Shown here one piece after another: positions 5,501-48,123 of a stretch of DNA of 59,782 nt; position 1 is the stretch's first letter; every line of letters begins with the position of its first letter. The DNA is taken from positions 1-59,782 of the forward strand of contig JBJXFM010000485.1 in the NCBI GenBank assembly GCA_046155425.1, given 5' to 3'. The position numbers and the translations under genes were made by a program. Below the pieces are notes generated by a model, which saw nothing but the letters and a program-made list of their open reading frames with translations, searched no databases and was not told the origin of the DNA. The DNA is from Blastocatellia bacterium (GTDB taxonomy: Bacteria > Acidobacteriota > Blastocatellia > RBC074).

Positions 5501-8466
5501 GCAGCTTTTTGGTCCGCCGTCTTTTGTTCCTCATCCGGATCGGACAGGCGCGTTTCCAGCGTCTCCATGGCTTTCCAGAGTTTTTCCGGCGCGAGCACGG
5601 CGCCGGCGTACAGAATGGCGGACCGCGGCAGCAACTCGCGCGGTATGGCCAGATCGCGCGCGGCGAAAGGACGCAGGCTGCCGACCCAGTCGTTGTCCTT
5701 CATGCGCAGTGTGAACTTTGTTTCCCAGCTGGTCGGCAGCGATTCCGGCGCCTGCCGCAACGCGCCGCTTTCCGCGCCGAGGGCTTCGCCAGGGAATTCA
5801 AAAAAGACGTCCTCGGGCGCGCCGGGTTTGCTTTTTCCGGCCGCCGCCGGCGCTTTCACGGCCGGGGAAAACGTCAGGTCACCCAGCCGGCTGAAATACG
5901 TGATTTCCCCGGTCTGGTTTTGTGTCTGGCGAAACGATTCGTTTGCGGCGATGACGGGTTGCGCGGCGGCGCGGCCCAGCAGGTCCAGCAGGGATTCACG
6001 CGTGGGCGTGATCACCGCGGTGTCGCCCAGATACGCAATGTGCGTCCTTTCGCGCGCGACCACACCCGTCACCGAGAGGGTCATTTTTTCGACGATCGTG
6101 ACGGGCAGTGTTCCGATGCGTTCCTCACGCAGGAAGATGTCGGCGGGTCCCGTGCGGCGCGGCGAACGTTGCCCCGTTCCCGCCATCACGGACGCATCGT
6201 TGAGAGAAGCGGTCAGCAGCATCGGCACAATGGCGGGCAGGGCGCCGGCCATGCGTGTGATGACCGAGGTGGTGGTGACCAGCGAATCAAGCGAACCGAA
6301 TTGTTTCTGCCAGGTCGCCACCAGATGTTCGAGACGCGCGCGATCGCGAACACGCAGGATCAGCGCGCTGTGTGATTCGGTGGTCGCGCTTTTGCCGGGC
6401 TCGACCCATTGCGCCAGCGACAGCGGCGCGCCCAGATCAACGCCCGTCGCCGCGCTGACACTGTCCGTGGCCGCCGCGTTGAGCCAGCCGGACATCTGCG
6501 CCTTGTATGTATTGAGCAACAGCGCAAAGGTCATCTGGTCGCGCACGGTTTCCATCTGCACGCCGGAAAACGCGCGGTCCAGCCGCGCCAGCGTCTGTTC
6601 GAAACGCGGCGCGCTGACATAGAGGTAGGAATGACCGGGAAAGAGTTTTTCACCGGTGGTCGGTGTGTTGGCGAATTGCGCCGGATCGGGCGCGAGGTTC
6701 GCGAAGGCAGTCGCGGGTTCACGGTACGCGAGCATGGCGTCGGCCCAGTCAGCGACCTGTGATTTGCGCGCGTCCTGCAGGACACCCTGTCGTTTCGCGT
6801 CGTTTCGCGCGTTGGCGTATGCCGCGCGAAACCGGATTTTTTCCATGGCGTCGCTGACCGCGCCGCGCACGAGGGCCAGGCGCAGGGATTCCGGCAGGTG
6901 GCGGAACGAAGCGGTGTATTCGCCCACGCCCGGCGTGAAGGCGCTGGTCACCGTGCCCGCTGGTTTGGCGGGTGGCGTAAAGGTTGTCCGGCCGGCGCCG
7001 GCCTTTGATCCGGGCGCGGGCGGCGGTGGCGGCGGCGGATCCTTGTCAAATTTCGCGTCGATTTCCTTCAGCCGTTTTTCCAGCGCGGGCAGGCTGGCCG
7101 GCGCGCCGATGTCGCCCAGCATGCGCATGGCCGCGTATTCCGTCTCGCCTTTGGCAAGGGCCTGGACGGCGGGCAATGTGTCAGCGGTCTGTCTGCGCCG
7201 GACATTTTCGGCGAGCAGGGTGACGAGGCGTTCATCGCCGGCGAGCGACAGTTTCGCCAGCGGCAACAGCAGGCCGCGCAGGGGCAGGATCAGGGCGATC
7301 CGCAATCCGGCGGCGTTTTGCGCGGCGGTGTCCGCGCGAAGCAGTTCCTCAACCAGCGGGCGCGCCGTCTGTTCATCGAGCGCCGTGCACAGATGCAGCA
7401 GCGCGGTGGGGGAAGCGGCGAGGGCGTTCAATCCGGGCCTGACGGCGCTGAGCACGGCCGCGGCATGTTTTTCCGCCAGCAGATTCAGGGCGCGGGCGGC
7501 GACCGCGCTGGTGTAAGGAGCCGGGTCGCCAAGGACCCAGACCAGCGTGGCCATCGACAGTGTCAGCCCATCACCCGCGGGCAGGCGCGCCGCATGCTGG
7601 CCGAATGCCCACGCGGCGGCGGCGCGCACCTGCGGGTCACTGTCGGTCAGCATGTCCATCAGTGATTCCGGGAGTGATTCCGGCGCTTTACCGGTCCCGG
7701 CGCCCATGCCCATCAGTTCACGCATTTGCGCGGACACGTCGGCGTTTGTCTGGCCCCGGCGAATATCCGCGGCGAGCCGCAGGGCCATGGCGTCCCGCGC
7801 CGGATTCATTTGCGCGCCGGCATTCAGCGTGACGAGGCGCGCGCGCAGGGTTTCAAATTCGGTGTCCCAGTGCCCGGCCGCGGTGATGCGCGCGGACAAC
7901 ATGGCGCGCTTGAAATACGGCTCCCATTTCTCGAAAGCTTCCGCCGCGCCGGTCAGCAGGAACACATAGGCGCGCGGCCCGGATTGCGTGACCCAGAACA
8001 CCTGCCGCAGCTGTTGTCCGGAATCTTCCTCGCGTTCCAGCGCGATTTCGCGGGCATCCAGGCCGCCCAGCAAAACACGCCGCACGGTCATGGTCTCGAG
8101 GTTGACACGGACCTCGCGCAGGCCCTTCAACATGGCGGTGGTGTAATTGGCCACGCCATAGCCCTCGGGAATGTCCTCGGTCATGACCATGATGTTGGCG
8201 GCGTCACCCTCGCTGATGAGTTGCAACTGGCCCTTTTCCACCTTGTTTTCCCGCCAGCTGGCCGGACGCCAGAACGTCCAGCCTTTCTCCCTGTCGATGT
8301 GGCGGACATATTTGTCGGCGGGCAGGGCGTATCCCTCCCACTGCGCGGCGCGCGCCTCGGTTTTTCCCGTGTCCGGCGCATCCCGGGCGCGCACGGACAG
8401 GACGAACAGCGGACAGATGAACAACAGGGACGTGACGAACAGACAGGCGCGGAACCCTTGGCGCAT
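2539..8466 (-). CDS. giant secreted multidomain protein with HEAT-like repeats, transglutaminase-like core and C-terminal TPR repeats
   Basis: Uninterrupted 1975-codon ORF. Signal-like N-terminus MRQGFRACLFVTSLLFICPLFVLSVRA. HEAT-like DSDPQVRAAAAWAFGQ. Poly-Pro linker PPPPPPPAP. Transglutaminase Cys/His/Asp core SREADCLEHAELY...GAHAWVEIW...VELDPTWG (nt ~4255-4425). TPR-like helical repeats at the C-terminus (nt ~2540-3400). Confidence 0.85.
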   Translation of the reverse strand: MRQGFRACLFVTSLLFICPLFVLSVRARDAPDTGKTEARAAQWEGYALPADKYVRHIDREKGWTFWRPASWRENKVEKGQLQLISEGDAANIMVMTEDIPEGYGVANYTTAMLKGLREVRVNLETMTVRRVLLGGLDAREIALEREEDSGQQLRQVFWVTQSGPRAYVFLLTGAAEAFEKWEPYFKRAMLSARITAAGHWDTEFETLRARLVTLNAGAQMNPARDAMALRLAADIRRGQTNADVSAQMRELMGMGAGTGKAPESLPESLMDMLTDSDPQVRAAAAWAFGQHAARLPAGDGLTLSMATLVWVLGDPAPYTSAVAARALNLLAEKHAAAVLSAVRPGLNALAASPTALLHLCTALDEQTARPLVEELLRADTAAQNAAGLRIALILPLRGLLLPLAKLSLAGDERLVTLLAENVRRRQTADTLPAVQALAKGETEYAAMRMLGDIGAPASLPALEKRLKEIDAKFDKDPPPPPPPAPGSKAGAGRTTFTPPAKPAGTVTSAFTPGVGEYTASFRHLPESLRLALVRGAVSDAMEKIRFRAAYANARNDAKRQGVLQDARKSQVADWADAMLAYREPATAFANLAPDPAQFANTPTTGEKLFPGHSYLYVSAPRFEQTLARLDRAFSGVQMETVRDQMTFALLLNTYKAQMSGWLNAAATDSVSAATGVDLGAPLSLAQWVEPGKSATTESHSALILRVRDRARLEHLVATWQKQFGSLDSLVTTTSVITRMAGALPAIVPMLLTASLNDASVMAGTGQRSPRRTGPADIFLREERIGTLPVTIVEKMTLSVTGVVARERTHIAYLGDTAVITPTRESLLDLLGRAAAQPVIAANESFRQTQNQTGEITYFSRLGDLTFSPAVKAPAAAGKSKPGAPEDVFFEFPGEALGAESGALRQAPESLPTSWETKFTLRMKDNDWVGSLRPFAARDLAIPRELLPRSAILYAGAVLAPEKLWKAMETLETRLSDPDEEQKTADQKAAAKQLDSEMKQNLMPRLQGEMAAALLSLSSVFSKDENATPSFVLAARLKDGEAARQFRAGKLFTSAVMVKDATAFGGPVATLPPMSESLHFTVTDEYLVFADSVATLKLLEEKEKFAATRDYQRAIEGTPAQLALFATYSIDAAFAEARKVAGKDENSLRMLNVISAMMHAFHSQRAWVAARAETSGEVALDAALSLSFGREGRYTVGSAGPKNGEIDLLNALITPRGLNILQPTRMESLRLKVTTREPGLTPRIREDITPFAWHTVETAGADGALVYRNTARRMPAGLTTRLPVAAPEFREYLQATPRINTDAPEVVKLAREIAGKDRDGRSVSRKLAEWTHTNLKWKRVNSTSAQTLASREADCLEHAELYTAMARALGLPARVVSGLAYSGGSFGAHAWVEIWLGKWVELDPTWGLPDYVDATHLRFADDGFIEYTILGQVNLEVLETRATVADFQRDPARLVREIGAADAASMRALAFDAGLAIEQALGAGKFAALDEKPRAAVIAAFDRAVGDLNQKWTGDWEWAEPHLLHQETSAGRVITLARLGQELFRFHLSQRDGAWYITEVEDLDGYPSLLGDPLRAALTPGQDPARIMARRFIDPEKALAQLEQLIARTGESAPLLLMKTRLLETKLNFEESERQQAAEKATEKSAGPEEKKEEKKTDTEAPVIAAPKSPGPVETLLLSITTRWPDYAPAWRALGDHYDNDEDTGEKSLAPLQRYAQLAPRDPRPHQEMGAVLARMDKLPEAEAAYREASKRDAHIDQQIRLVSFLLWNDLHDKAVGALRDTFRAATGQMAGQKQELDDVFSSLGFDTEVLTDEAEEEMYPRVEKLLLAFPKELAGHKEGLRLLAHCQDMQDHVDAALKTMRRVVALGPESGDYKIITSLHRQLRQYPLALAAAAQAVKLDRENAAAHFERARVLALAGRKREAVATLKRAIELSEYLRASLENPDFKSLADLPAFKALAPKEESGQKAPPATEKP

Positions 8467-20588: not shown

Positions 20589-21113
20589 ATGGCGGATATC
20601 GACATTCATTATGACCCACTGGCCGTTAACGTTAACCCGAGCACGGTGGCGCTGACGGGGCTGAATGATATACAGAGCCGGATTACGCTCGAGACACCGC
20701 AACCGGTGCGCGCCGACACGCGCACGGAGCTGGTCCTGCCACAGCCGTTCAGAACGGAAATAAATGTTCCCGATCCGATTCGCACGGAAAGCACGGCGGC
20801 GCTGGATATCAGACCACTGGCGCTGGATCAGTGTCTCAACCTGCGTTTCGCGCCATTGCCGGCGACCTGTGTCCGCCTGCCGTATCAGCAGCATGTCGGG
20901 TTGACGTGGTTTGGCGTGGAAATCCTCGGCCTGACATTGCGCGGCGAGGCGCAGACCATCGTCGAGCCGTTGCCCGACAAACCAAAGGTTGTCTGGGGCG
21001 CCACGGAATCAGCAATACGGCCTGGCGATGGCGCGACGCATGACGCCATACATGGAGAAGGCTGCGGAAATCCGCCTTCTTCACAGGGCGCGCTGCGCAT
21101 ACGGCTGGGATAA
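20589..21113 (+). CDS. orphan cytoplasmic protein A with PxP-h-R-T-E repeats
   Basis: 174 aa. The ATG is preceded by AGGAAAGG. No signal peptide or TM. Contains PQPVRADTRTE / PQPFRTE / PDPIRTE repeats (nt 20697-20789). No family recognised. Confidence 0.7.
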   Translation: MADIDIHYDPLAVNVNPSTVALTGLNDIQSRITLETPQPVRADTRTELVLPQPFRTEINVPDPIRTESTAALDIRPLALDQCLNLRFAPLPATCVRLPYQQHVGLTWFGVEILGLTLRGEAQTIVEPLPDKPKVVWGATESAIRPGDGATHDAIHGEGCGNPPSSQGALRIRLG

Positions 21114-21146: not shown

Positions 21147-21968
21147 ATGAGCACAACGGAGAAAAAATCCAGACCTGCCATACAGCATGTTCACATTCAT
21201 GGTCCCGGGGGCGATGGAGCCATTGTTCTGGCTGGCGACCCGGCGTCCATCACGGGTGTCGTGCGCCTGCACAACCGCGGACCCGAGAAAATCATCGTGC
21301 GTGAGGCCTGGTTGCTGAACCTGAAGTTGCATCTGTCGCAACCCGAGGGGGGCACGGCGCCGGCTTGTCCGGTTTCGTTTTCGGGCATGACAGTTGATCC
21401 GGGCGCCGCGCAGACGGTGTCGCTGCGGCTGGATCTTGACCGGCGGACGCCGCCGGGCGAATACCAGGGTGAACTGCACATGGCCGGGCTGCAAACCCCG
21501 GCGCGTCTTTATGTCATGCCCTCCGTCCGCGCGCGTGTTTCTCCACGCCCCTGTGTCATCGACCGGCGCGCTGGCGCCAGCGTCACGGCACACCTGGCCA
21601 TCGCCAACGAAGGGAATGTGCCGCTATATCTGAGCGAAATCGGGCAGGTTCCGCTGTTCGAGGACCTGCTGTTGCGGCGCAGCGTGGCGTCCATTCTGTC
21701 CGGTGACACGCCCGCGCTGCTGGAAAACCTCGCGCCGAAAGCGGCGGATGATGGCGGCGCCGGCGGGGCTGTCAGCCCGCAAAAGGGCACGCTGCTGATT
21801 CGCAACGAGGCGTTGACGCTCGCCCCCGGCGAAACGCGCCGCGTGGAAATAGAGGTACGGTTGCCGGATCATCTGCAACCAAATACGCGGTATCTGGCGC
21901 GCTTCCCGCTGTACACCACCGAGATTGAATTCGTTATTGTCCCGTCGGGTAACCCGGCGCCGGATTGA
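21147..21968 (+). CDS. orphan cytoplasmic protein B with two beta-sandwich (Ig/CARDB-like) modules
   Basis: 273 aa with a strong SD (GGGAGGAG) 4 nt upstream. Two modules with alternating-hydrophobic strand patterns: ITGVVRLHNRGPEKIIV...MTVDPGAAQTVSLRLDL and VTAHLAIANEGNVPLYL...LTLAPGETRRVEIEVRLP. No signal peptide. Confidence 0.75.
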   Translation: MSTTEKKSRPAIQHVHIHGPGGDGAIVLAGDPASITGVVRLHNRGPEKIIVREAWLLNLKLHLSQPEGGTAPACPVSFSGMTVDPGAAQTVSLRLDLDRRTPPGEYQGELHMAGLQTPARLYVMPSVRARVSPRPCVIDRRAGASVTAHLAIANEGNVPLYLSEIGQVPLFEDLLLRRSVASILSGDTPALLENLAPKAADDGGAGGAVSPQKGTLLIRNEALTLAPGETRRVEIEVRLPDHLQPNTRYLARFPLYTTEIEFVIVPSGNPAPD

Positions 21969-22021
21969 CCCGGACGTTCGCGGGTATCAAAACAAAGTTC
22001 GCATTACTGGAGGAACAAAGC

Positions 22022-22753
22022 ATGCAGAACACGATGTCACATGTGATGGGCGGGGATGCGCGGCGGATGTTTCCGGACAGGAGCGCGGCTGTTCAGCCAC
22101 GCGCCTGCGACGCCTGCGGGCGCGCCCTTGCTCCCGCAGGCGCGGACTGGATGGGGCAATGGTACGACGCGATGTATCGCGGCGCGGCCCCGCTGGCCGG
22201 CCAGATGATGACGGAGGTGATGCGGACATGGGATCGCATGGCGCGGGGCATGTTCGATTCGCTGACACCGCCGCCCATGCCCGGCGCGCATGTCGCGAAT
22301 TGCGGTTGCGCGCGTTGCCGCCCGGACGATTGCCACTGCCGTTGTTGCGTCGTCAACGCCGATCTGCTGGTCAACGCGCGTGTCGGGGAACGCCGCGTGG
22401 TTCCGCTGGTCATCGAAAACAACATGCGGCGCGAACGCGAAGTTTCCCTGGAACTCAGTTCGTGGACAAACCGCGATGATAAGGGAATCCAGGTCGCCGG
22501 GCTGATCGAGGGACCAACGAAATTCACGCTGAAGGCCTGCGAAGAGCGCGTCGTCACGCTCATCGTCAATGTCAGCGGTGCGCCAACGCCGGGGGCGAAC
22601 GAAAACAGAATGCAGGACGTGACGGAATGCCAGGTCGTGTACGCCGATCTGCGTGTCGTTGGCTGTGACATACGGCCCATCCGCATTGCCGTCAGCGTGT
22701 TGCCACGCGATTGCGGCCCCACGCGCATCGATTGCCGCTGCGGGTGTTGCTGA
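22022..22753 (+). CDS. orphan protein C: Met-rich N-terminus, Cys knot, one beta-sandwich module, CRCGCC terminus
   Basis: The start is moved to the ATG at 22022 (GGAGGA 7 nt upstream). An in-frame TTG at 21965 that overlaps the B stop is an alternative. 243 aa. By my count, 12 Met in the first 90 residues. NCGCARCRPDDCHCRCC at nt 22301-22348. 17 Cys in total. The protein ends ...DCGPTRIDCRCGCC. Confidence 0.75.
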   Translation: MQNTMSHVMGGDARRMFPDRSAAVQPRACDACGRALAPAGADWMGQWYDAMYRGAAPLAGQMMTEVMRTWDRMARGMFDSLTPPPMPGAHVANCGCARCRPDDCHCRCCVVNADLLVNARVGERRVVPLVIENNMRREREVSLELSSWTNRDDKGIQVAGLIEGPTKFTLKACEERVVTLIVNVSGAPTPGANENRMQDVTECQVVYADLRVVGCDIRPIRIAVSVLPRDCGPTRIDCRCGCC

Positions 22754-22806: not shown

Positions 22807-23622
22807 ATGGCGAATGAATTACAGAATCTGAGCGACTGGATGCAGGGACTGCTGTCACGTTCGGTCGAGGAACAGTTGCGCGCCTCGCAGCGTTATTTCG
22901 AGGTCATGCAACGCGCCGGGCGCGGCGAGTTGTTGACGCGGCCGGCCGGGGAAAATTACTGGCGTTTCGTGCAGGAAGAAGGAACGCGGTTCGCGCGCGA
23001 CTGGACGACACTGACAGTGAATTATTACAACGGGCTGGCCGAACTGGGCCGCGCGTGGAATGACACATATTTCGAACAGGTGCTGGGCATGCGTGTGACC
23101 GAGGGCGCCATGGCCACGGCCGGCGTGGCGCACGAGGGGCCGCATGCCGCGCCGGCGCCGGTTGCTCCACGGCGCGTCGAACTGGAAATGCGCGCGGCCA
23201 GCGGGACTGAGGCGACCGCTGCGTTTGCGCTGGAAAACAGACAGAACGAGGCGCTGCGGATTTCGTTTCTCGTGTCGGATTTTGTCAGCGCCGACGGGAC
23301 AAGTTCACTGCGCCCGCCGCTGCAAATAGAGCCCTCCCGCTTCACGCTGCCCGCCGGGATGGAACAGGCCGTCACCCTGCGCCTGCCCGTGACCGCCGAA
23401 TTCCTGCCGGGCCAGCCATACAGCGCGACGATTGTCGTCCAGGGATATGACCATCTCGAACTGATCGTGCATCTGCTGGCGGAACCATCCCCCGTGATCG
23501 AAGCGCAGAACATGGCGGCGCATAAAGCCGCGCCAAAGCGCGCGAAAGCAAAACCGGCCGGCGCGCCGGCGCGCGGCAAATCTCCTGAAACGGCCGGCAG
23601 ACGTTCAGGCAGCCGCCGCTGA
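22807..23622 (+). CDS. orphan protein D: helical phasin-like N-terminus, one beta-sandwich module, Lys/Arg/Ala/Pro tail
   Basis: The start is set at the ATG at 22807 (MANELQNLSDWMQGLL...). The module contains ATAAFALENRQNEALRISFL...FTLPAGMEQAVTLRLPV...YSATIVVQG. The tail is HKAAPKRAKAKPAGAPARGKSPETAGRRSGSRR. Confidence 0.75.
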   Translation: MANELQNLSDWMQGLLSRSVEEQLRASQRYFEVMQRAGRGELLTRPAGENYWRFVQEEGTRFARDWTTLTVNYYNGLAELGRAWNDTYFEQVLGMRVTEGAMATAGVAHEGPHAAPAPVAPRRVELEMRAASGTEATAAFALENRQNEALRISFLVSDFVSADGTSSLRPPLQIEPSRFTLPAGMEQAVTLRLPVTAEFLPGQPYSATIVVQGYDHLELIVHLLAEPSPVIEAQNMAAHKAAPKRAKAKPAGAPARGKSPETAGRRSGSRR

Positions 23623-23682: not shown

Positions 23683-26190
23683 ATGGACCGAAAGAGCAGC
23701 AAACGTCGTAATGACACGAAAACGGCGGCGGCCACGCCCGCGCCGCCACGCGCCCGTGGAAAGAAAGCCTCCAAAGACACGGACCCGGCGTTCCTAGCTC
23801 CTGCGGCGCTCGCGAATCCGCCGCGAAAACGCGCACGGGCAGGCGCGCCGCCATCATCCGCACAGCCGTCATCCGCCCGCGCCGAAACGTCGCATGCCGA
23901 AACGCCCCTTCCGCCCAAAACCCGCGTCGCCATTGCCGATGCGCCAGGGCAGGACAAATTCGCATTGCTGGAATCCGCGTTGCGGCAGGCGGGGTTCCGG
24001 GAACATCTGGCGGCGGCCTGCCAGCGCGGACCGGGTTCCCCGGACGCCATGCGCATCCTCATCAAACCGGACTTCAGTGTCTTTGAGGCGCACGGCGCCA
24101 CGGGCACGGACCCGGCGCTGGTCGAACATCTCATCGACCTGCTGCACGCATGGGGTTACACCAACGCACAGGTTTGCGAGGGGCCGAACAGTTTCGATCT
24201 GTGGCTGGAAAACCGCGATGTCCTCGTCCTCGCCGAAATGATCGGATACCGCTTTGTTACGCCGGCAGGCAATTCATATGACGTCCTGGATCTCAGTGAA
24301 GATGTCATCCCATTGGACTTTCCGGCCGGCAGCGCCCTGCACGGCGCCGGGCTGGCGCGCGTATGGGTCGAGGCCGATTACCGCATTTGCTTTGCGCGGA
24401 ACAAGACGGACGAGGAAGAGTTTTACGCACTCGGCCTGCACAACCTGGCGGGCGCGTTGCCGTTGCGGGACAAGGATTACCATTACCGGCATCGCCTTGA
24501 TCCGCGCGATGTCGCGTCTGAATTGCTGCGGCGGACGCCGGCGCATTTCAGCGTGATTGACGCCTCGGTCAGCAACCATGGCGGCGCCGGCGCGCGCGTT
24601 TCCCATCCGCTGGCGACCGCGACCATGATTGCCAGTTCCGACCTCCTGCTCGCGGACTGGGCGGCCGCGCGGAAAATGGGGCTGGATCCGTATGTCTCGC
24701 GGCGCAACGCGGCGGCGTTGCGGGAAATCGGCCTGCCGGTGGCCTATGAAGTCGCCGGCTCGCTGGCGCCGTATCCCGGCTGGATCAACGTGCATCCGCT
24801 GATGGCCGATTCCGTGCGGCGGCGCAATCGTTCGCTGACCGTGATGCGCCTGCTGGCGCCATGGCTGCAAACGGCCGATCCGGCGCTGTTCCCGTTCCGC
24901 GATGTCCTCAATGAGCGGCTCAACAACCTGCTGGCGCGCAATCTGTCACGCCCGGACGAACAGCCGGGAACATTCTGGGCCACGGTCGCGCTCAACTATG
25001 CCCTGGGCGCGGCGCACGACGGCGTGACGACATACCAGACGCTGTTCGACAAGGATCGCCTGCGCTGGCGCGAGGCGCCGCTCAATATCGACCTGCTCGA
25101 ACATCGCCTGACGGAATACGAGGCGATTGTCGACTATCTGGCGCCGCTCGCAAACCTGGTGGCGGACGCGCCGGCGGATCGCGAGGGACTGCGCTGGTGT
25201 GATTACGGCAAATCCGTGCTGTTCAGCTTTTCCCGCGTGATTCCCGCGCCGTATGACGATTTTGTCGCGCGTGTCGCGATCACCGAGGCCATTCAGCTGA
25301 TGAACGATTACATCGGCGGCGTCGCGGTTCCGGTCGCGCACGACGCCGATGGGCGCGTCACGCATCAGGCCGAACGCAATCTGTATCTGCCGCAACCGAA
25401 TTACCTGGCGCTGTATCAGGGAGAAATCATTGATGTGACGAAGCTCGAATACATCGTGTATGAAGCCGGCGCGCGGCGCATTTACTGGCGCACGGTGAAA
25501 AGCGCCAACGCCTCGGCGGAATACGACGACGGCATGGTGACATTCGCCCGGACGGAAGCGGGCGAAACACTGGTGACAATCATGGGGCGGCAATTGTTCA
25601 CCCTGCCGGTGTTCTGGAAAATCGTCAATCTCGAACTGAATCCCATGCTCAGGGAATATCTGGTGGCCAATGCATACAGCGATTTTTTCACGCGGACGCT
25701 GAACAATTTCGAGGCGAAATACGAGGGCCGCGAAATCCGCATCGGCCGCGCGTGGAATCACGAACAGGGCGAACCCGGAGCCGCGGCGAACGAACGCATG
25801 CCAGCCGAAGTGGTGGCGGAGCTGCTGGGCCGCGCCGGCGCGGCGGTCAATCGCAACTGGGACACGATCGCGCGCTTTCTGCCGCGTAAATATCAAACAG
25901 AGAAGTCGGCACAGGGGCCAGCACAGGGGCCAGGGCCCGATGCGGGCGCGGGACACGGGGCTGTAAATGGCGTTGCGCGGGGCGTAGTCGATGAAGACGG
26001 CTTCACACACGTACGCCCGCCGTCGGGCGATGCGTTTGTCACGAACGGGGTGGAGGATTCCGCCGCGACGGAAACAGAAGACGATCTGCGGCGTCTTTTC
26101 AATCGCGCCAAAAGCGGTTCGCGGACATTTTTCAAAGACCTGACAGCGGCCGTCAAAAAGGATCTGGGCCGGCCGGGGAAACAGGACTGA
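23683..26190 (+). CDS. basic disordered N-terminus + DUF362 domain + unassigned ~350-aa C-terminal region
   Basis: 835-aa ORF. The first ~110 residues are Lys/Arg/Pro/Ala-rich. DUF362-like pattern: MRILIKPDF...TDPALVEHLIDLL...ADYRICFARNKTDEE...FSVIDASVSNHGG...MIASSDLLLADWAAARKMGLDP. The C-terminus LRRLFNRAKSGSRTFFKDLTAAVKKDL looks amphipathic. There is no obvious SD, so the start is uncertain. Confidence 0.7.
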   Translation: MDRKSSKRRNDTKTAAATPAPPRARGKKASKDTDPAFLAPAALANPPRKRARAGAPPSSAQPSSARAETSHAETPLPPKTRVAIADAPGQDKFALLESALRQAGFREHLAAACQRGPGSPDAMRILIKPDFSVFEAHGATGTDPALVEHLIDLLHAWGYTNAQVCEGPNSFDLWLENRDVLVLAEMIGYRFVTPAGNSYDVLDLSEDVIPLDFPAGSALHGAGLARVWVEADYRICFARNKTDEEEFYALGLHNLAGALPLRDKDYHYRHRLDPRDVASELLRRTPAHFSVIDASVSNHGGAGARVSHPLATATMIASSDLLLADWAAARKMGLDPYVSRRNAAALREIGLPVAYEVAGSLAPYPGWINVHPLMADSVRRRNRSLTVMRLLAPWLQTADPALFPFRDVLNERLNNLLARNLSRPDEQPGTFWATVALNYALGAAHDGVTTYQTLFDKDRLRWREAPLNIDLLEHRLTEYEAIVDYLAPLANLVADAPADREGLRWCDYGKSVLFSFSRVIPAPYDDFVARVAITEAIQLMNDYIGGVAVPVAHDADGRVTHQAERNLYLPQPNYLALYQGEIIDVTKLEYIVYEAGARRIYWRTVKSANASAEYDDGMVTFARTEAGETLVTIMGRQLFTLPVFWKIVNLELNPMLREYLVANAYSDFFTRTLNNFEAKYEGREIRIGRAWNHEQGEPGAAANERMPAEVVAELLGRAGAAVNRNWDTIARFLPRKYQTEKSAQGPAQGPGPDAGAGHGAVNGVARGVVDEDGFTHVRPPSGDAFVTNGVEDSAATETEDDLRRLFNRAKSGSRTFFKDLTAAVKKDLGRPGKQD

Positions 26191-26243
26191 ACGACAGGGC
26201 GAGGACGCGTGTGAGCGGAAACGATTCTTTCCATGGAGCAGGC

Positions 26244-27335
26244 GTGAAAGTACTGGTCACCGGCGCGAGCGGGCTGATCGGCGCGAGTCTCGTGCGGGAA
26301 CTGCTGACGGCGGGATGCCACGTGCGCGCGCTGGTCCGCCCGACCAGCGATCCGCGCGCCCTGGCGGGCCTGCCGGTCGAGATTGTCCATGGTGACATCC
26401 TCTCGCCGGACAGCCTTGCCGCGGCGGCGGCGGATTGCGAACTGTTGTTTCATACGGCGGCGATTTTTGCCTATCAGGGGCATACGGACAGGCAACTCGA
26501 AAGCGTCGCGGTGGATGGAACGATCAACGCGCTGGAAGCGGCGCGGCGCGCGGGTGTGCGGCGTGTCACGCTGACATCGTCAAGCGTGACCCTCGGATCC
26601 GCCGCCACGCGGACGATCCGGGATGAAAACGATACGCTGACCGGCGCGCCGGATTCCGCCTACGCCGCTGCCAAGGTCCGGCAGGAACAGGCGGCGTTCG
26701 CCCGCGCGGCGGAGCTGGGGCTCGATCTCGTGGTTGTCTGTCCGACGATCACCGTGGGGCCGCACGATTTCCGCCTGAGTCCGAGCAACGGGGCGATCAT
26801 GACGTATCTGGCCGATCCTTTCCGCATCACCTTTCCGGGCGGTTGCAATGTCGTCGCGGCGCGGGATGTGGCGCGCGGGCATCTGCTGGCGGCGGCAAGG
26901 GGAGAGACAGGACAGCGTTATGTCCTTGGCGGCGAGAACCTGGAATGGATCGACATCCATCGCCTGATCGCGCGGCTGTGCGGCGTGCCGGGACCGCTGT
27001 CCTTTACGAACCATACCGGGGCTTATCTGACGGCGGCGGCGCACGAACTGGTGTCGTGGCTGGGGCGCAGGCCGCCAACGACCACGCGGACACAGGCGCG
27101 CATGGTGGGACGTTATTACTGGTACCGGCACGAACGCGCGGCCGCGCTGGGATATGCGCCGGCGCCCGCCCGGGAAGCGCTGGCCACGGCCGTCGCCTGG
27201 CTGGCGGCCAGCCCGCATGTTTCACGCGCGCTCCGCGCCACGCTGCGTCTGTCGCGCGAGGTGTATGACGCGCGGCGAAAGATGGAGCAGGCCGAGGCCG
27301 CGTTGCGTGGAAGGCCGGTAGCCGGTGGACGGTAG
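26244..27335 (+). CDS. NAD(P)-dependent epimerase/dehydratase-family SDR (dihydroflavonol-reductase / HpnA-like)
   Basis: (M)KVLVTGASGLIGASLVRELL Rossmann motif and YAAAK catalytic motif. I prefer the GTG at 26244 (GGAG 6 nt upstream) over the track start at 26211. Confidence 0.8.
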   Translation: MKVLVTGASGLIGASLVRELLTAGCHVRALVRPTSDPRALAGLPVEIVHGDILSPDSLAAAAADCELLFHTAAIFAYQGHTDRQLESVAVDGTINALEAARRAGVRRVTLTSSSVTLGSAATRTIRDENDTLTGAPDSAYAAAKVRQEQAAFARAAELGLDLVVVCPTITVGPHDFRLSPSNGAIMTYLADPFRITFPGGCNVVAARDVARGHLLAAARGETGQRYVLGGENLEWIDIHRLIARLCGVPGPLSFTNHTGAYLTAAAHELVSWLGRRPPTTTRTQARMVGRYYWYRHERAAALGYAPAPAREALATAVAWLAASPHVSRALRATLRLSREVYDARRKMEQAEAALRGRPVAGGR

Positions 27336-27438
27336 CTCTGAACCAGGTTCATGGCGAGCTCCCAGCCTTGTCTTTATTAGGGATTGTGAATCGGAGCATC
27401 GAACATCAATCAGAAACTACCGTCTACCGTCTACCGTC
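27313..27438. repeat. inverted pair of 7-nt x3 tandem arrays spanning the SDR stop codon and the next gene's leader
   Basis: ccggtag ccggtgg acggtag (27315-27335, including the TAG stop) against ctaccgt x3 (27417-27437), which are reverse complements apart from 3 positions. The spacer is 81 nt. Confidence 0.6.
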
Positions 27439-27467
27439 TTCTGTGAAATTTGAAATAAGAGGATCGC

Positions 27468-28007
27468 ATGAAAACCTTCAGCAGCATTGTTGTCGTCAAA
27501 CATCCGCGCGAGCTGGTCTGGACAACCATTCGCGATCATTTGCCGGAACTGACGCCGTTTCTGGACGACATTGACGCGATTTCCGTGTCGGAACGCGACG
27601 AAGAGCCGAATGGCACGGTCCGGCTGGTCAACCTGTGGAAAGCGAGCCCGCCGATTCCGGCGTTGCTGTCCTCGGTGCTCGATCCGGAGATGCTGGCGTG
27701 GGTGGATCGCGCCGAATACCAGCCGCAACAGTACGAATGTCACTGGCAAATCGAGCCGCGTTTCTTTCCGGACCGGACGCGCTGCGCCGGCGTGACGCGT
27801 TACGAAACGGCGCTGGGCGGCCGTGGCACAAAGATTACGTTCAGTGGCGGGCTGGGCGTGGCGATGGAAAACCTGGCGGGTGTCCCCGCGTTTATGGAAG
27901 GGACGGTCAGGCGCGGCGTGGAATCCTTTGTGACCACGCTGATTCCCAAAAACTTTCGCCGCCTGACCGATGCGCTCTCGCAATATCTGACGCGGCAGGG
28001 CGTCTGA
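27468..28007 (+). CDS. SRPBCC (START/polyketide-cyclase-like) family protein
   Basis: 179 aa. The N-terminus SSIVVVKHPRELVWTTIRDHLPEL and the overall size and pattern are typical of the SRPBCC ligand-binding fold. The SD AAGAGGA lies upstream. Confidence 0.6.
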   Translation: MKTFSSIVVVKHPRELVWTTIRDHLPELTPFLDDIDAISVSERDEEPNGTVRLVNLWKASPPIPALLSSVLDPEMLAWVDRAEYQPQQYECHWQIEPRFFPDRTRCAGVTRYETALGGRGTKITFSGGLGVAMENLAGVPAFMEGTVRRGVESFVTTLIPKNFRRLTDALSQYLTRQGV

Positions 28008-28011
28008 ACGC

Positions 28012-29232
28012 TCACGGTCCGCCGATCAGGTGCGCGTGGTGAAAGCCCAGCCGCGGGTCGGCGAGGCGAGGCAACGAAGGGACGTAATCGTGCAGCGGCG
28101 GCATCTGCACGCGGAAACGCAGGGTCGTTTCGGGGTAATCGTAAATCGTAATGTGGTTGAGGCCACGGTTGGCCGTGAACAGCAACGACTGATCCGCCGA
28201 GAGCTGACAGCCATAAATCGAATCGAGCAGGGAAAAACGGCTGACGCGCATGGCGCCGAAAAAATGCCGGTTGCCCGTGAAAAAACCGCCGCGGGCGAAT
28301 ACGTCATACACCTGTGTCGCGATTTCACGCGGATGCCGCAGGCTGGTCAGCAGGTCGGGCCGCTCATCGATCAGGCGGAAATCGGCCATGGATTCCAGGT
28401 CGATGAGGACCACGGACTGGCTGCCGCCGTTGCAGAAAATCAGCTCGCGGTCCGAGATCGTCACGTCGGAATTGATATGCGCGGGTGTTTCCCGCGTGGT
28501 CGCCCAGTGCCGCCGCACCTGTTTGCTTTCCGCGTCGACCTCAAAGGCGTATTCCTTGAGAAAGGCCATCGCCCATTCGTGATAATCGACATAGTCCTGG
28601 GGCAGGACGCGAAAGGAAACGCAGTAAAACAGGTCCTCGCGCGGATGGCAGACGAGGTGCCAGCAGGTCGCCGGCAATTCAATGCGCGTGGCCTGACCGG
28701 TCCGCATATCCCAGACGCCGACTTCGCGCGCTTCTCCATGTTTCGGGTGATCCATCGAGCCGTAGCAGAGATATTTTTTCGAGGGCGTCAGTTTCATCGA
28801 ATGCGGCAGCTTGACGAGATGCGGGCCGAGGCGTTCACCCTTTGACAAATCGCGCAGGTTGAAACGGTAAAAATAATCACCGATGGCCGTGATGAATTCC
28901 TCGTTGTTCAGCCATACCAGATGCGTGCTGCCGCGCAGGGAGGTGTCATTGGCCTCGAAACGCAGGGTGGAAATGCGCCCGATTTCACTCAGGTCCGCCG
29001 GATCGAAAAAGAGCAGGTGCTGCCCGGCGTTTCCCAGAAACCCGGCCGTGCCCGCCGGGTTGACGCTGACCCAGTGCCCGGCGGCGATGCCGGGGAAATA
29101 ACGGATTTTCCAGGCATGCGCCTGACCGGCCGGGTTGTACAGAAACAGACACACACCCGCCATGCCCTCAAGGCCGTTAATGCCATTGCCATCCAGCGCT
29201 ACGTAAAAGGCGTATGGATACCCTTTCAGCAT
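28012..29232 (-). CDS. hypothetical 406-aa protein (beta-rich, possibly propeller-like; no family recognised)
   Basis: Long ORF with no signal peptide. It converges on the SRPBCC gene with 4 nt between the stops. No motif I can name. Confidence 0.6.
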   Translation of the reverse strand: MLKGYPYAFYVALDGNGINGLEGMAGVCLFLYNPAGQAHAWKIRYFPGIAAGHWVSVNPAGTAGFLGNAGQHLLFFDPADLSEIGRISTLRFEANDTSLRGSTHLVWLNNEEFITAIGDYFYRFNLRDLSKGERLGPHLVKLPHSMKLTPSKKYLCYGSMDHPKHGEAREVGVWDMRTGQATRIELPATCWHLVCHPREDLFYCVSFRVLPQDYVDYHEWAMAFLKEYAFEVDAESKQVRRHWATTRETPAHINSDVTISDRELIFCNGGSQSVVLIDLESMADFRLIDERPDLLTSLRHPREIATQVYDVFARGGFFTGNRHFFGAMRVSRFSLLDSIYGCQLSADQSLLFTANRGLNHITIYDYPETTLRFRVQMPPLHDYVPSLPRLADPRLGFHHAHLIGGP

Positions 29233-29448
29233 GGTTCACCCTTGCGGATCGCTCCGCGCCAGAACTGCCAGAACTGGTTGATAATCTGCGTTGTTTGAGA
29301 TGAGCCGAGTATAGAAGCAGCCATGTGGTTGCGCAATACGGCGGCCGCCGCGGAACGGAATTCACCCATCCGTTTCCCGCCGGCGGCTGGTGGAAATGAT
29401 CCGCGCCCGGGTTGATACGGAGGAAGCGCTCATGGAGCAAAGGGTGTC

Positions 29449-30039
29449 ATGCTGAAAAAACAGACAGGAGAAGTCAGGTTGCCAGGCGGCGTCGCGGACA
29501 GCGTGTGGCAGCGCGTGTTCGCATATCTGTTCGCATACCTGGATGCCCGCGAGGCGGGGCTGGTACGGATCATGGTCAGCCAGTGCGGGGCGCCACACTG
29601 GCGCCGTCTGTGGATCACGCTGAACCGGCTGGGGAATGGCTGGCTGTATCTGCCGCTGGCCGTGCTGGCGCCGCTCCTGGCGGGGCGGCGGAGCATCCCC
29701 TTTTTGCGGGTGGCCGCGTTGTCGCTGATCGTGGCTTTTCTGTTGTATTCGTTTCTCAAACCGCGTCTGGCGCGCCTGCGTCCCTGTGATCTGGATCCGG
29801 GGATGTCGACGGCCGTGCTGGCGCTGGATAAATATTCCTGTCCCAGCGGGCATTGCATGACGGCGGCGGCGATTGGCTATCCGCTGGCGCACGAGTTTCC
29901 GTCATTGCTGTTGCTGGTGATCGCCGGCTGGGGGCTGATTGCCTGGTCGCGGCTGTCGCTGGGGCATCATTACCCCACGGACCTGCTGGCCGGAGGGCTC
30001 ATCGGCGCCGGGGTTTCCTGGCTGATTTCCGCTTTGTGA
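29449..30039 (+). CDS. PAP2 family phosphatase (membrane)
   Basis: KPRLARLRP...PSGHCMTAAA...SRLSLGHHYPTDLLAG are the three PAP2 motifs (KxxxxxxRP, PSGH, SRxxxxxHxxxD). Confidence 0.85.
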   Translation: MLKKQTGEVRLPGGVADSVWQRVFAYLFAYLDAREAGLVRIMVSQCGAPHWRRLWITLNRLGNGWLYLPLAVLAPLLAGRRSIPFLRVAALSLIVAFLLYSFLKPRLARLRPCDLDPGMSTAVLALDKYSCPSGHCMTAAAIGYPLAHEFPSLLLLVIAGWGLIAWSRLSLGHHYPTDLLAGGLIGAGVSWLISAL

Positions 30040-46698: not shown

Positions 46699-48123
46699 TT
46701 AACGTTTCTTCTTCTTTTTGGCTTTCTTTTTCGCCCCGATGCCGGTGATTTTGCGAGCGACCTTGCCACCAAGGTTGCCGAGCATGCCGCCACCGAACAT
46801 CTGGCCGTTCATCATCATATTCATCATCTTTTTCATCTCGACATACTGATTGAGCATGGCGTTGACATCCTGCACTTTCGTGCCGCTGCCACGCGCGATG
46901 CGCTGTTTGCGGGATGAATTGATGATCAGATGGTTGTGGCGCTCGGCCGGCGTCATCGAATTGATGATCGCCACCGTGCGCTTCATTTCCTTTTCCATCT
47001 GCGCCGTCATTTCCGGCGTGACTTTGGGCATCATGCCCCCGAACATATCCCCGGGGAGCATGCTCAGCACGCTGTCCAGGGAACCCAGCTTTTTCATCTG
47101 GCCGAGCTGATCGCGGAAATCCTCGAGCGTGAACTCGTTGTTCACGATCTTGCGTTCCAGTTCCTCGGCCTTGTCCTCGTCGATTTCCTCGCGCGCCTTA
47201 TCGATCAGCGTCAGCACATCGCCCATGCCGAGAATGCGCGAGACGATGCGGTCGGGAATAAAGGCCTCGAATGTGTCGTTTTCCCAGTATTTCTCCCCCG
47301 TCCCGACAAACTTGATCGGCTGCCCCGTGACTTCCTTGATCGACAGCGCCGCGCCGCCGCGTGTGTCGCCATCCATCTTGGTAAGGATGACGCCGGTGAC
47401 CGCGATCTGGTCGTGAAACTGTTTCGCGCTGTTGACGGCGTCCTGCCCGGTCATCGAGTCGGCGACGAACAGCGTTTCGATGGGCTGCATCTCGGCCCTG
47501 ATCCGCTGCAGCTCGTTCATCAGCTGTTCATCGACATGCAGGCGGCCGGCGGTGTCGATCATCAGCGTATCGAACCCCGTCTGCTCGCAATGCAGCCGCG
47601 CCGCGCGGCACAGTTCCAGTGGATCGTTCAGCCCCCCGCCCGCGAAAACCGGTATGTGCAGCTGTTTGCCGATCACCGCCAGCGGCTCGCGCGCCGCCGG
47701 ACGATACACGTCCACCGACAGCAGCAACGGATTGCGGTTCTGGTTTTTCTGCAGCCAGCGCGCCAGTTTACCGGTTGATGTCGTTTTGCCCGACCCCTGC
47801 AAACCCACGACCATCACGCTGTTGGGACGCCGCGAAGTGAACAGCAAACGGCTGGATGTGCCCCCGAGCATCTCGACCATTTCCTCGCGGACAATCTGGA
47901 CAACCTGTTGTCCGGGCGAGAGCTGCTGCCATACGTCCTGGCCGAGCGCTTTGGTTTTGACGCGCTCGATGAAATCCTTCACGACACGGAAATTGACATC
48001 GGCCTCGAGCAGCGCGATGCGAATTTCGCGCATGGCCAGATCAAGGTGTTCCGGCGACAGACGGCTTTCGCCCCGCAGGTCCTTGACGACTTTCTTTAAT
48101 TTGTCGGAAAGGGATTCGAACAT
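46699..48123 (-). CDS. ffh: signal recognition particle protein Ffh
   Basis: [18 protein letters not shown]..., GTPase motifs [21 protein letters not shown] and TKMDGD, and a Met-rich M domain. Confidence 0.95.

Follow-up and report, generated by a model that had tools for sequence, protein, structure and literature searches.

What would a bacterial protein with an immunoglobulin (Ig)-like module and no sign of export do with 17 cysteines? This question is raised by gene C, which lies in a 59,782-nucleotide (nt) stretch of a Blastocatellia bacterium (contig JBJXFM010000485.1, GenBank assembly GCA_046155425.1) that we refer to as the window, and by its 243-amino-acid (aa) product, protein C. 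The original prediction took the Met-rich N-terminus and the dense Cys clusters of this protein as hints of metal or redox chemistry. We found that 15 of the 17 Cys are conserved at 89-99% across 238 homologues, which span at least 5 phyla, and that gene C travels with partner genes beside lipid-type accessory genes. The reading that we favour, tentatively and with somewhat less than even confidence, is that protein C is a cytoplasmic metal-thiolate subunit, most likely binding Zn, with a structural role in an undescribed lipid-associated assembly.

Cysteine clusters and fold of protein C

Gene C and its parts, by position in the window, are as follows.

22010-22015, + strand: Shine-Dalgarno sequence GGAGGA, 6 nt 5' of the gene C ATG, read directly from the sequence
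22022-22753, + strand: gene C (P0001), 243 aa followed by a TGA stop; Cys-rich, founding an unannotated family
22106-22117, + strand: N-terminal CxxCG knuckle (C29, C32), found in a long-form subset of the family only
22142-22267, + strand: Met/Trp-rich amphipathic helical region (aa 41-82), with AlphaFold2 (AF2) helices at 43-52 and 61-81
22301-22348, + strand: N-proximal Cys cluster C-x-C-x2-C-x4-C-x-C-x-CC (C94, 96, 99, 104, 106, 108, 109), preceded by H90
22349-22711, + strand: PapD/MSP/CARDB-like beta-sandwich (aa 110-230), bearing the conserved C173, C203 and C215
22712-22750, + strand: C-terminal Cys cluster C-x6-C-x-C-x-CC (C231, 238, 240, 242, 243), at the end of protein C

The Shine-Dalgarno sequence, the Met-Gln start that aligned homologues share exactly with protein C, and the number of these homologues together indicate that gene C is real; the antisense open reading frames (ORFs) opposite it are shadow ORFs, in a region with 64% G+C. 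We scanned protein C against Pfam and NCBIfam and found no family at E ≤ 0.1, a PADLOC scan gave no match, and a search of PDB sequences with the family profile gave none at E ≤ 1. The family comprises 146 homologues in a 90%-clustered collection and 202 representative clusters in a 50%-clustered collection, all labelled "hypothetical" or left without a name. Its members range from 76 to 331 aa in length, and informative domain fusions are therefore absent. Conservation figures for the family refer to an alignment of 238 members with 170 aa or more, motif counts to 262 members with fragments included, and linker and Met composition to 148 full-length members.

Our recount of the residues agreed with the numbers first proposed: 12 Met within residues 1-90 (positions 1, 5, 9, 16, 44, 51, 62, 63, 67, 73, 77 and 86) and 17 Cys in 243 aa (positions 29, 32, 94, 96, 99, 104, 106, 108, 109, 173, 203, 215, 231, 238, 240, 242 and 243), with seven Cys in aa 94-109 (nt 22301-22348; aa 93-109 read NCGCARCRPDDCHCRCC) and five in the final 14 residues (DCGPTRIDCRCGCC). 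Cys thus accounts for 44% of aa 94-109 and 7% of the whole protein. With the 14 other ORFs of the window as background (Met 2.3%, Cys 0.7%), the binomial probability was 9e-7 for 12 Met in 90 residues, 5e-12 for the Cys count of the whole protein and 1e-11 for the seven Cys within 16 residues, and both residues are enriched far above chance.

The original prediction had staked its metal reading on the conservation of each Cys and Met, and for the Cys this held. Conservation was near complete in the first cluster (C94 93%, C96 96%, C99 99%, C104 99%, C106 99%, C108 99%, C109 98%), on the sandwich (C173 99%, C203 97%, C215 98%) and in the second cluster (C231 98%, C238 98%, C240 89%, C242 98%, C243 98%), and position 90 is His in 72% of the sequences. 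CxCxCC forms the C-terminal end of 190 of the 262 members, while the knuckle motif CxxCG[RGS] occurs in 48 of them. Column identity averages only 36% in a 32-sequence alignment, and the near-invariant Cys clusters define the family.

An AF2 model of protein C, built from 32 sequences, gave eight strands within aa 115-226 with a predicted local distance difference test (pLDDT) score mostly >90, and the two Cys strings flank this sandwich directly. Foldseek against the PDB matched the model to PapD-like chaperones, MSP/ASH domains and subtilase Fn3-like domains (E 3e-5 to 4e-4); the probability was 1.0 for PapD-like chaperones and MSP/ASH domains, with a template modelling (TM) score of only ~0.3 over the whole protein. 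Against BFVD, the matches were phage tail or Ig-like domains. All matches in these two collections were generically Ig-like, and none bore Cys clusters. The Ig-like module proposed from the sequence is borne out by both AF2 and Foldseek, and the model places protein C among the PapD/MSP/CARDB-like (E-set) sandwiches at the fold level only.

We found no segment of transmembrane-strength hydrophobicity in protein C (maximum 19-residue Kyte-Doolittle value, KD19, of 1.09) and no visible signal peptide, and because of both the cytoplasmic location assumed earlier is consistent with the sequence. A Tat-type (twin-arginine) signal built on "ARRMFP" was considered and rejected: no hydrophobic core follows it and the motif is unconserved. 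We also rejected a reading of the C-terminus as a ribosomally synthesised and post-translationally modified peptide (RiPP) precursor; protein C is a folded 243-aa protein.

The Met-rich N-terminus did not share the conservation of the Cys. Columns that hold Met in protein C are 1-24% Met across the 238 homologues and are otherwise filled by Leu, Ala, Val or Trp, and protein C ranks 4th of 148 in N-terminal Met content, with a family median of 4.6%. AF2 gave the helices at 43-52 and 61-81 low-to-moderate pLDDT. The segment aa 60-82 has a hydrophobic moment (muH) of 0.71, which none of 1000 shuffles matched (0/1000), and the Met residues fall on a single face of the amphipathic helix. Because the Met columns are so rarely Met and this segment is so strongly amphipathic, the Met residues appear to be a lineage-specific hydrophobic helix face, with no conserved set of ligands among them.

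A second variable region lies in the 40 residues ahead of the invariant CxCxCC, a linker that is hypervariable across the family. His makes up at least 15% of this linker in 36 of the 148 full-length members and at least 25% in 18 of them, and the number of extra Cys ranges from 0 to 14. One His/Cys-rich linker of a homologue reads HHHHHHDHHDHHHHDHHHHDHHGHGCDCGCCDCCDCC; others read HHHHHHDHHDHHHHDHHHHDHHGHGCDCGCCDCCDCCDCCNCGCCC and HHHHRHRGDCGCGHHHHGHGHGHGHGHDCHC. Among loci from named organisms, poly-His/CxC expansions were found in Phenylobacterium, Pseudorhodoplanes/Rhizobiaceae (Rhizobiales), Thermoanaerobaculia, Acidimicrobiaceae and Acidobacteriota. Close relatives of the homologues with an expanded linker are without the expansion, so that such expansions are recurrent and arose independently. 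The composition of these linkers would fit metal binding in a reducing cytoplasm.

The A-B-C(-D) module and its neighbours

Gene C is the third of four genes, A to D, and a group of lipid-type accessory genes follows them in the window.

20589-21113, + strand: gene A (174 aa), invariant partner; PxPIxTE repeats, C82, beta-hairpin, C-terminal GLRIRLG
21147-21968, + strand: gene B (273 aa), invariant partner; two beta-sandwich modules, PF10633 NPCBM_assoc/NEW3
22807-23622, + strand: gene D (271 aa), C paralogue without conserved Cys; N-terminal helices, beta-sandwich, basic K/R/P/A tail
23683-30039, mixed strands: accessory lipid-type module, from Pfam/NCBIfam matches, with the five members that follow
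23683-26190, + strand: DUF362 protein
26211-27335, + strand: HpnA-like short-chain dehydrogenase/reductase (SDR)
27468-28007, + strand: SRPBCC-like protein
28012-29232, - strand: unannotated 406-aa protein (P0263)
29449-30039, + strand: PAP2 phosphatase
46699-48123, - strand: Ffh gene, its product 79-81% identical to proteins of Blastocatellia metagenome-assembled genomes, which assigns the window to Blastocatellia (Acidobacteriota)

We fetched 45 loci and found genes A, B and C in this order on the same strand in the window and in every untruncated locus; gene D follows C in about 30. Such A-B-C loci, about 40 in number, occur in Acidobacteriota, Chloroflexota, Actinomycetota and Proteobacteria, and homologues of C were found in Anaerolineae, Sphingomonadales, Caulobacterales, Rhizobiales, Burkholderiaceae, Acidimicrobiia, other Actinomycetota and Acidobacteriota. 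The A-D genes abut or overlap in Sphingomonas sp. SUN019, where B ends at 8004 and C starts at 8001 with a shared ATGA, which implies that the two are co-translated. The closest homologue of protein C (59% identity) comes from a soil metagenome, in a nine-gene order identical to that of the window. Gene C is single-copy in the source assembly (7.6 Mb, 1025 contigs, 94% complete), and a search of 60 related genomes, of which 5 share its genus, 31 its family and 24 its class, recovered neither the A-D cluster nor C. The patchy spread of C relatives, together with this absence from 60 relatives, suggests horizontal transfer of A-D. The G+C content of the cluster is ~0.60-0.65, unremarkable against the rest of the contig. 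An Rfam scan of the whole window matched no RNA family.

We compared the sandwiches of C and D by hhalign (probability 92.6%, E 4.5e-7), and the two are homologous, with C as a Cys-decorated paralogue of D; they share a plan of helical N-terminus, sandwich and tail. The hhalign comparison of C with B was not significant, and the description of A-D as "four paralogous modules" is confirmed for the C/D pair only. Protein B matches PF10633 at E 2.5e-6, above the cutoff, and has no conserved Cys or His. AF2 gave protein A a confident long beta-hairpin at aa 93-125 only, with the remainder disordered (pLDDT 50). PDB sequence searches with the A and D profiles gave no match, and proteins A-E have no transmembrane-strength segment (maximum KD19 1.1-1.3).

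Proteins A and D vary among lineages in ways of their own. In the alignment of protein A the number of PxPIxTE-type repeats varies, C82 is invariant and GLRIRLG is conserved at the C-terminus; in some species a His-rich insert stands ahead of the C-terminal tail, and the His-richness of A and C in the same locus is uncorrelated (Spearman -0.25, P 0.35, n=16). The tail of D is swapped by lineage: in the window it is rich in K/R/P/A, in Anaerolineae it is a helix-hairpin-helix (HhH; PF14520) and in Acidimicrobiia a zinc-ribbon-like CPxC...CP segment, with swapped tails in the D homologues at L001:9803-10771 and L015:10407-11330. All of these tail variants are of nucleic-acid-binding-like types.

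At least one lipid-type accessory gene was present in 33 of 44 loci, and which kind is present depends on the lineage. The set seen in the window (DUF362, SDR, SRPBCC, 406-aa protein and PAP2) stands beside A-D in about 14 loci, the window among them; in others, a polyprenyl synthase gene is found beside A-D with SCP2-like and DUF2804-like genes, and several loci of Chloroflexota and Actinomycetota have the polyprenyl synthase gene inserted immediately between C and D. A WS/DGAT wax-ester/triacylglycerol (TAG) synthase (PF03007, E 1e-44) is encoded in 6 actinobacterial loci (L014, L015, L022, L024, L036 and L042). Directly after D, 5 loci (L032, L033, L035, L039 and L045; about 10.8-16.9 kb) encode a single-module type I polyketide synthase (PKS) with ketosynthase, acyltransferase, ketoreductase and acyl carrier protein domains (KS-AT-KR-ACP), some with a methyltransferase domain as well. 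Pfam searches on genes located beyond the PKS, and on those of loci that lack any recognised module, returned unrelated functions.

Two of the accessory proteins of the window have features worth recording. The DUF362 protein has 835 aa, about double the usual size, and its match to the DUF362 model is confined to residues 125-330; homologues elsewhere have about 700-780 aa, so the unassigned C-terminal half is conserved. We found no function for DUF362 in the literature. The 406-aa protein, which had no Pfam, NCBIfam or PDB sequence match, is 65-73% identical across Blastocatellia, Sphingomonadales, Phenylobacterium, Anaerolineae and Acidimicrobiia and far more conserved than A-D; invariant residues include at least 13 His and 4 Cys, and the protein has the look of a soluble metalloenzyme.

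Candidate roles of the cysteine strings

Conserved thiols in large number, within a reducing compartment, are usually metal ligands. CxC, CC and CxxC are the motifs of metallothioneins, and His/Cys-rich tracts bind metal in the tails of SlyD, HypB, UreE, Hpn and pseudomonad metallothioneins; poly-His/CxC/CC expansions are more typical of Zn/Ni/Cu/Cd thiolate binders than of iron-sulfur (Fe-S) proteins. The union of a folded domain with a metallothionein part has a precedent in a thioredoxin-metallothionein (Trx-MT) chimera (PMC13578184). Given the composition of the tracts, the Cys motifs, this chimera and the cytoplasmic location, metal-thiolate binding by protein C seems the most economical reading, and the tract composition would favour Zn (or Ni/Cu) over Fe-S. 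Of the metal or redox chemistry first suggested for this protein, the part that stands is the one drawn from the Cys clusters, which are conserved and which the His/Cys-rich linker suits; the part drawn from the Met-rich N-terminus does not.

In the metal-thiolate reading, protein C would consist of an amphipathic helical N-terminus, a PapD/MSP/CARDB-like sandwich and two metallothionein-like Cys strings. The strings, together with C173, C203, C215 and H90, would chelate several metal ions, most likely Zn(II), as thiolate clusters; the roughly 16 ligands would be enough for ~4 tetrahedral sites or one metallothionein-type cluster. These clusters would fasten both tails to the sandwich and might also link it to partners A and B, while the variable His/Cys-rich linker of the homologues would serve as a metal-capturing tail and the amphipathic helices would touch a hydrophobic surface or a partner protein. 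Protein C would be obligately combined with A and B, and in most cases with its Cys-free paralogue D as well. The assembly of A-D in the cytoplasm would package or scaffold a hydrophobic product (isoprenoid, wax ester/TAG or polyketide lipid) of the interchangeable enzymes encoded alongside.

Several observations weigh against this reading. Both Cys strings have pLDDT 41-50 in the AF2 model, which fixes neither their geometry nor their mutual proximity, although low values are as expected for sites that require a ligand. Partner A is mostly disordered in AF2. The Cys spacing of protein C matches no catalogued metal site, and we found no CXCXCC motif in this sense in the literature. No lipid gene was seen in 11 of the 44 loci, most of which are short contigs, and the link to lipids is one of guilt by association. 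Metal-homeostasis genes are not recurrent in the neighbourhoods of C; a role in detoxification or storage is therefore unlikely, and a metal in protein C would more likely be structural, or a cofactor, than stored or detoxified cargo.

A wider proposal is that A-D form the coat or scaffold of an undescribed cytoplasmic lipid, isoprenoid or polyketide-lipid inclusion that has spread horizontally among Acidobacteriota, Chloroflexota, Actinomycetota and Proteobacteria. Its coat would be locked by metal bridges through the Cys/His clusters of C, and D would anchor the body to the nucleoid by its tail. We consider this proposal possible and, on balance, doubtful.

Other explanations for the Cys strings keep the same conserved residues and assign them different chemistry. 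Protein C might bear Fe-S clusters and act as a redox or electron-transfer partner of the neighbouring lipid-modifying enzymes, namely the DUF362 or the His-rich 406-aa protein. Its 15 conserved Cys in a cytoplasmic setting would allow this, DUF362 belongs to the same operon and is described by Pfam as occurring in some iron-sulfur proteins, and the 406-aa neighbour is metalloenzyme-like in its invariant His. We nevertheless regard it as unlikely: the spacing C-x-C-x2-C-x4-C-x-C-x-CC / C-x6-C-x-C-x-CC is not the ferredoxin-type CxxCxxCxxxCP, neither Fer4 nor any other Fe-S Pfam model matches protein C, the linker expansions are of a kind typical of thiolate binders, and C is tied to A and B everywhere while the enzymes vary, most loci having neither the DUF362 nor the 406-aa gene. 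Rather unlikely, too, is that the thiols form reversible disulfides that harden an A-D assembly, or act as a sacrificial antioxidant or redox sensor guarding stored lipids, with Met adding to the sink. The position of the Cys strings at both exposed ends of the sandwich, the invariant C82 of protein A, which could pair with C, and the association with oxidisable lipid products are in its favour, but the cytoplasm is reducing, the Met residues of protein C are unconserved, an odd number of conserved Cys and CC pairs make for poor disulfide geometry, and disulfides leave the His-rich expansions beside the cluster unexplained.

Lipid anchoring is a further option, for which the cysteine-string protein and the CC/CXC ends of Rab GTPases are models: the CxCxCC strings would be S-acylated or S-prenylated and hold C on the surface of a lipid inclusion. 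The placement of CxCxCC at the extreme C-terminus, the polyprenyl synthase gene between C and D and accessory modules that all make lipids agree with this idea. We judge it quite improbable, as we recognised no family of protein prenyltransferases or acyltransferases in the neighbourhoods, the His-rich expansions point to metal, and we know of no case of S-acylation or S-prenylation of bacterial cytoplasmic proteins. Copper handling, in which the Met-rich motifs and the Cys clusters jointly bind Cu(I), was put forward in the original prediction and is the explanation to which we give least credence; we think it highly improbable. The Met content of this copy of C in one segment recalls CopC, PcoC and CusF, the Met enrichment is well above the local background, and the Cys clusters could bind Cu(I) as MymT or Cu-metallothioneins do. 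However, the Met columns are filled by other residues in homologues and the Met residues are confined to one helix face, whereas CopC, PcoC and CusF are periplasmic proteins with conserved Met motifs. Protein C has no signal peptide and no match to the Pfam or NCBIfam models of these proteins, and no cop or cus genes lie nearby.

If protein C does bind metal, as we favour, it would represent a new way to build a metal-thiolate site, with two Cys strings clamped on an Ig-like sandwich, and a new, unannotated family sharply marked by its 15 Cys. The A-B-C(-D) gene module has not been described, and we found no literature on it; its position beside four kinds of lipid genes in at least 5 phyla would point to an undescribed cytoplasmic means of packaging or scaffolding hydrophobic products. 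Culturable carriers of the module include Sphingomonas sp. SUN019, Pacificimonas pallii, Aurantiacibacter and Kribbella.

Comparison with known systems

The PapD-like/MSP/ASH and CARDB/NEW3 sandwiches are the best structural matches to protein C, and the neighbouring protein B itself matches NEW3 (PF10633). Domains of these kinds occur in the periplasm, at the surface or in eukaryotes and carry no Cys clusters, in contrast to protein C, which resembles them at a TM score of ~0.3 and has no sequence-level membership among them.

PhaM of Ralstonia is an inclusion-surface protein that tethers to DNA. In Rhodococcus, MLDS tethers lipid droplets to DNA (PMC5504291). The C/D pair resembles both in its amphipathic N-terminal helices, the basic or HhH tail of D and the adjoining neutral-lipid genes (WS/DGAT), and the variation of the D tail recalls MLDS and PhaM. 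Phasins and MLDS, however, have no beta-sandwich such as C and D carry; the phasin Pfam models did not match C or D, and no sequence relation to PhaM or MLDS was detected.

SlyD, HypB, UreE and Hpn are nickel/zinc metallochaperones. Their tails resemble the linker of the C family in being hypervariable His/Asp/Cys tracts beside a conserved domain, of unequal length even in close relatives. In C the tract lies between two domains, ahead of an invariant Cys cluster, and its loci lack the hydrogenase or urease context.

The nearest parallels to the Cys strings are the bacterial metallothioneins and their fusions, among them SmtA/BmtA, the pseudomonad metallothioneins with His-rich tails and the Runella Trx-MT chimera TrxA (PMC10612145, PMC13578184). 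Protein C did not match metallothionein models in Pfam, NCBIfam or PDB sequences. A metallothionein is small (<10 kDa), dominated by Cys and encoded by a stand-alone, metal-induced gene, whereas protein C has 243 aa, 7% Cys and a large folded domain that carries three of its conserved Cys, and belongs obligately to a module of four genes, so that it falls outside the class as defined. What the two share is a very high local density of Cys arranged as CxC, CC and CxxC, with His joining in or expanding nearby, and in Runella TrxA, as in protein C, a folded domain bears the Cys-rich part. By this analogy, protein C would work most like a metallothionein-type cluster mounted on an Ig-like scaffold.

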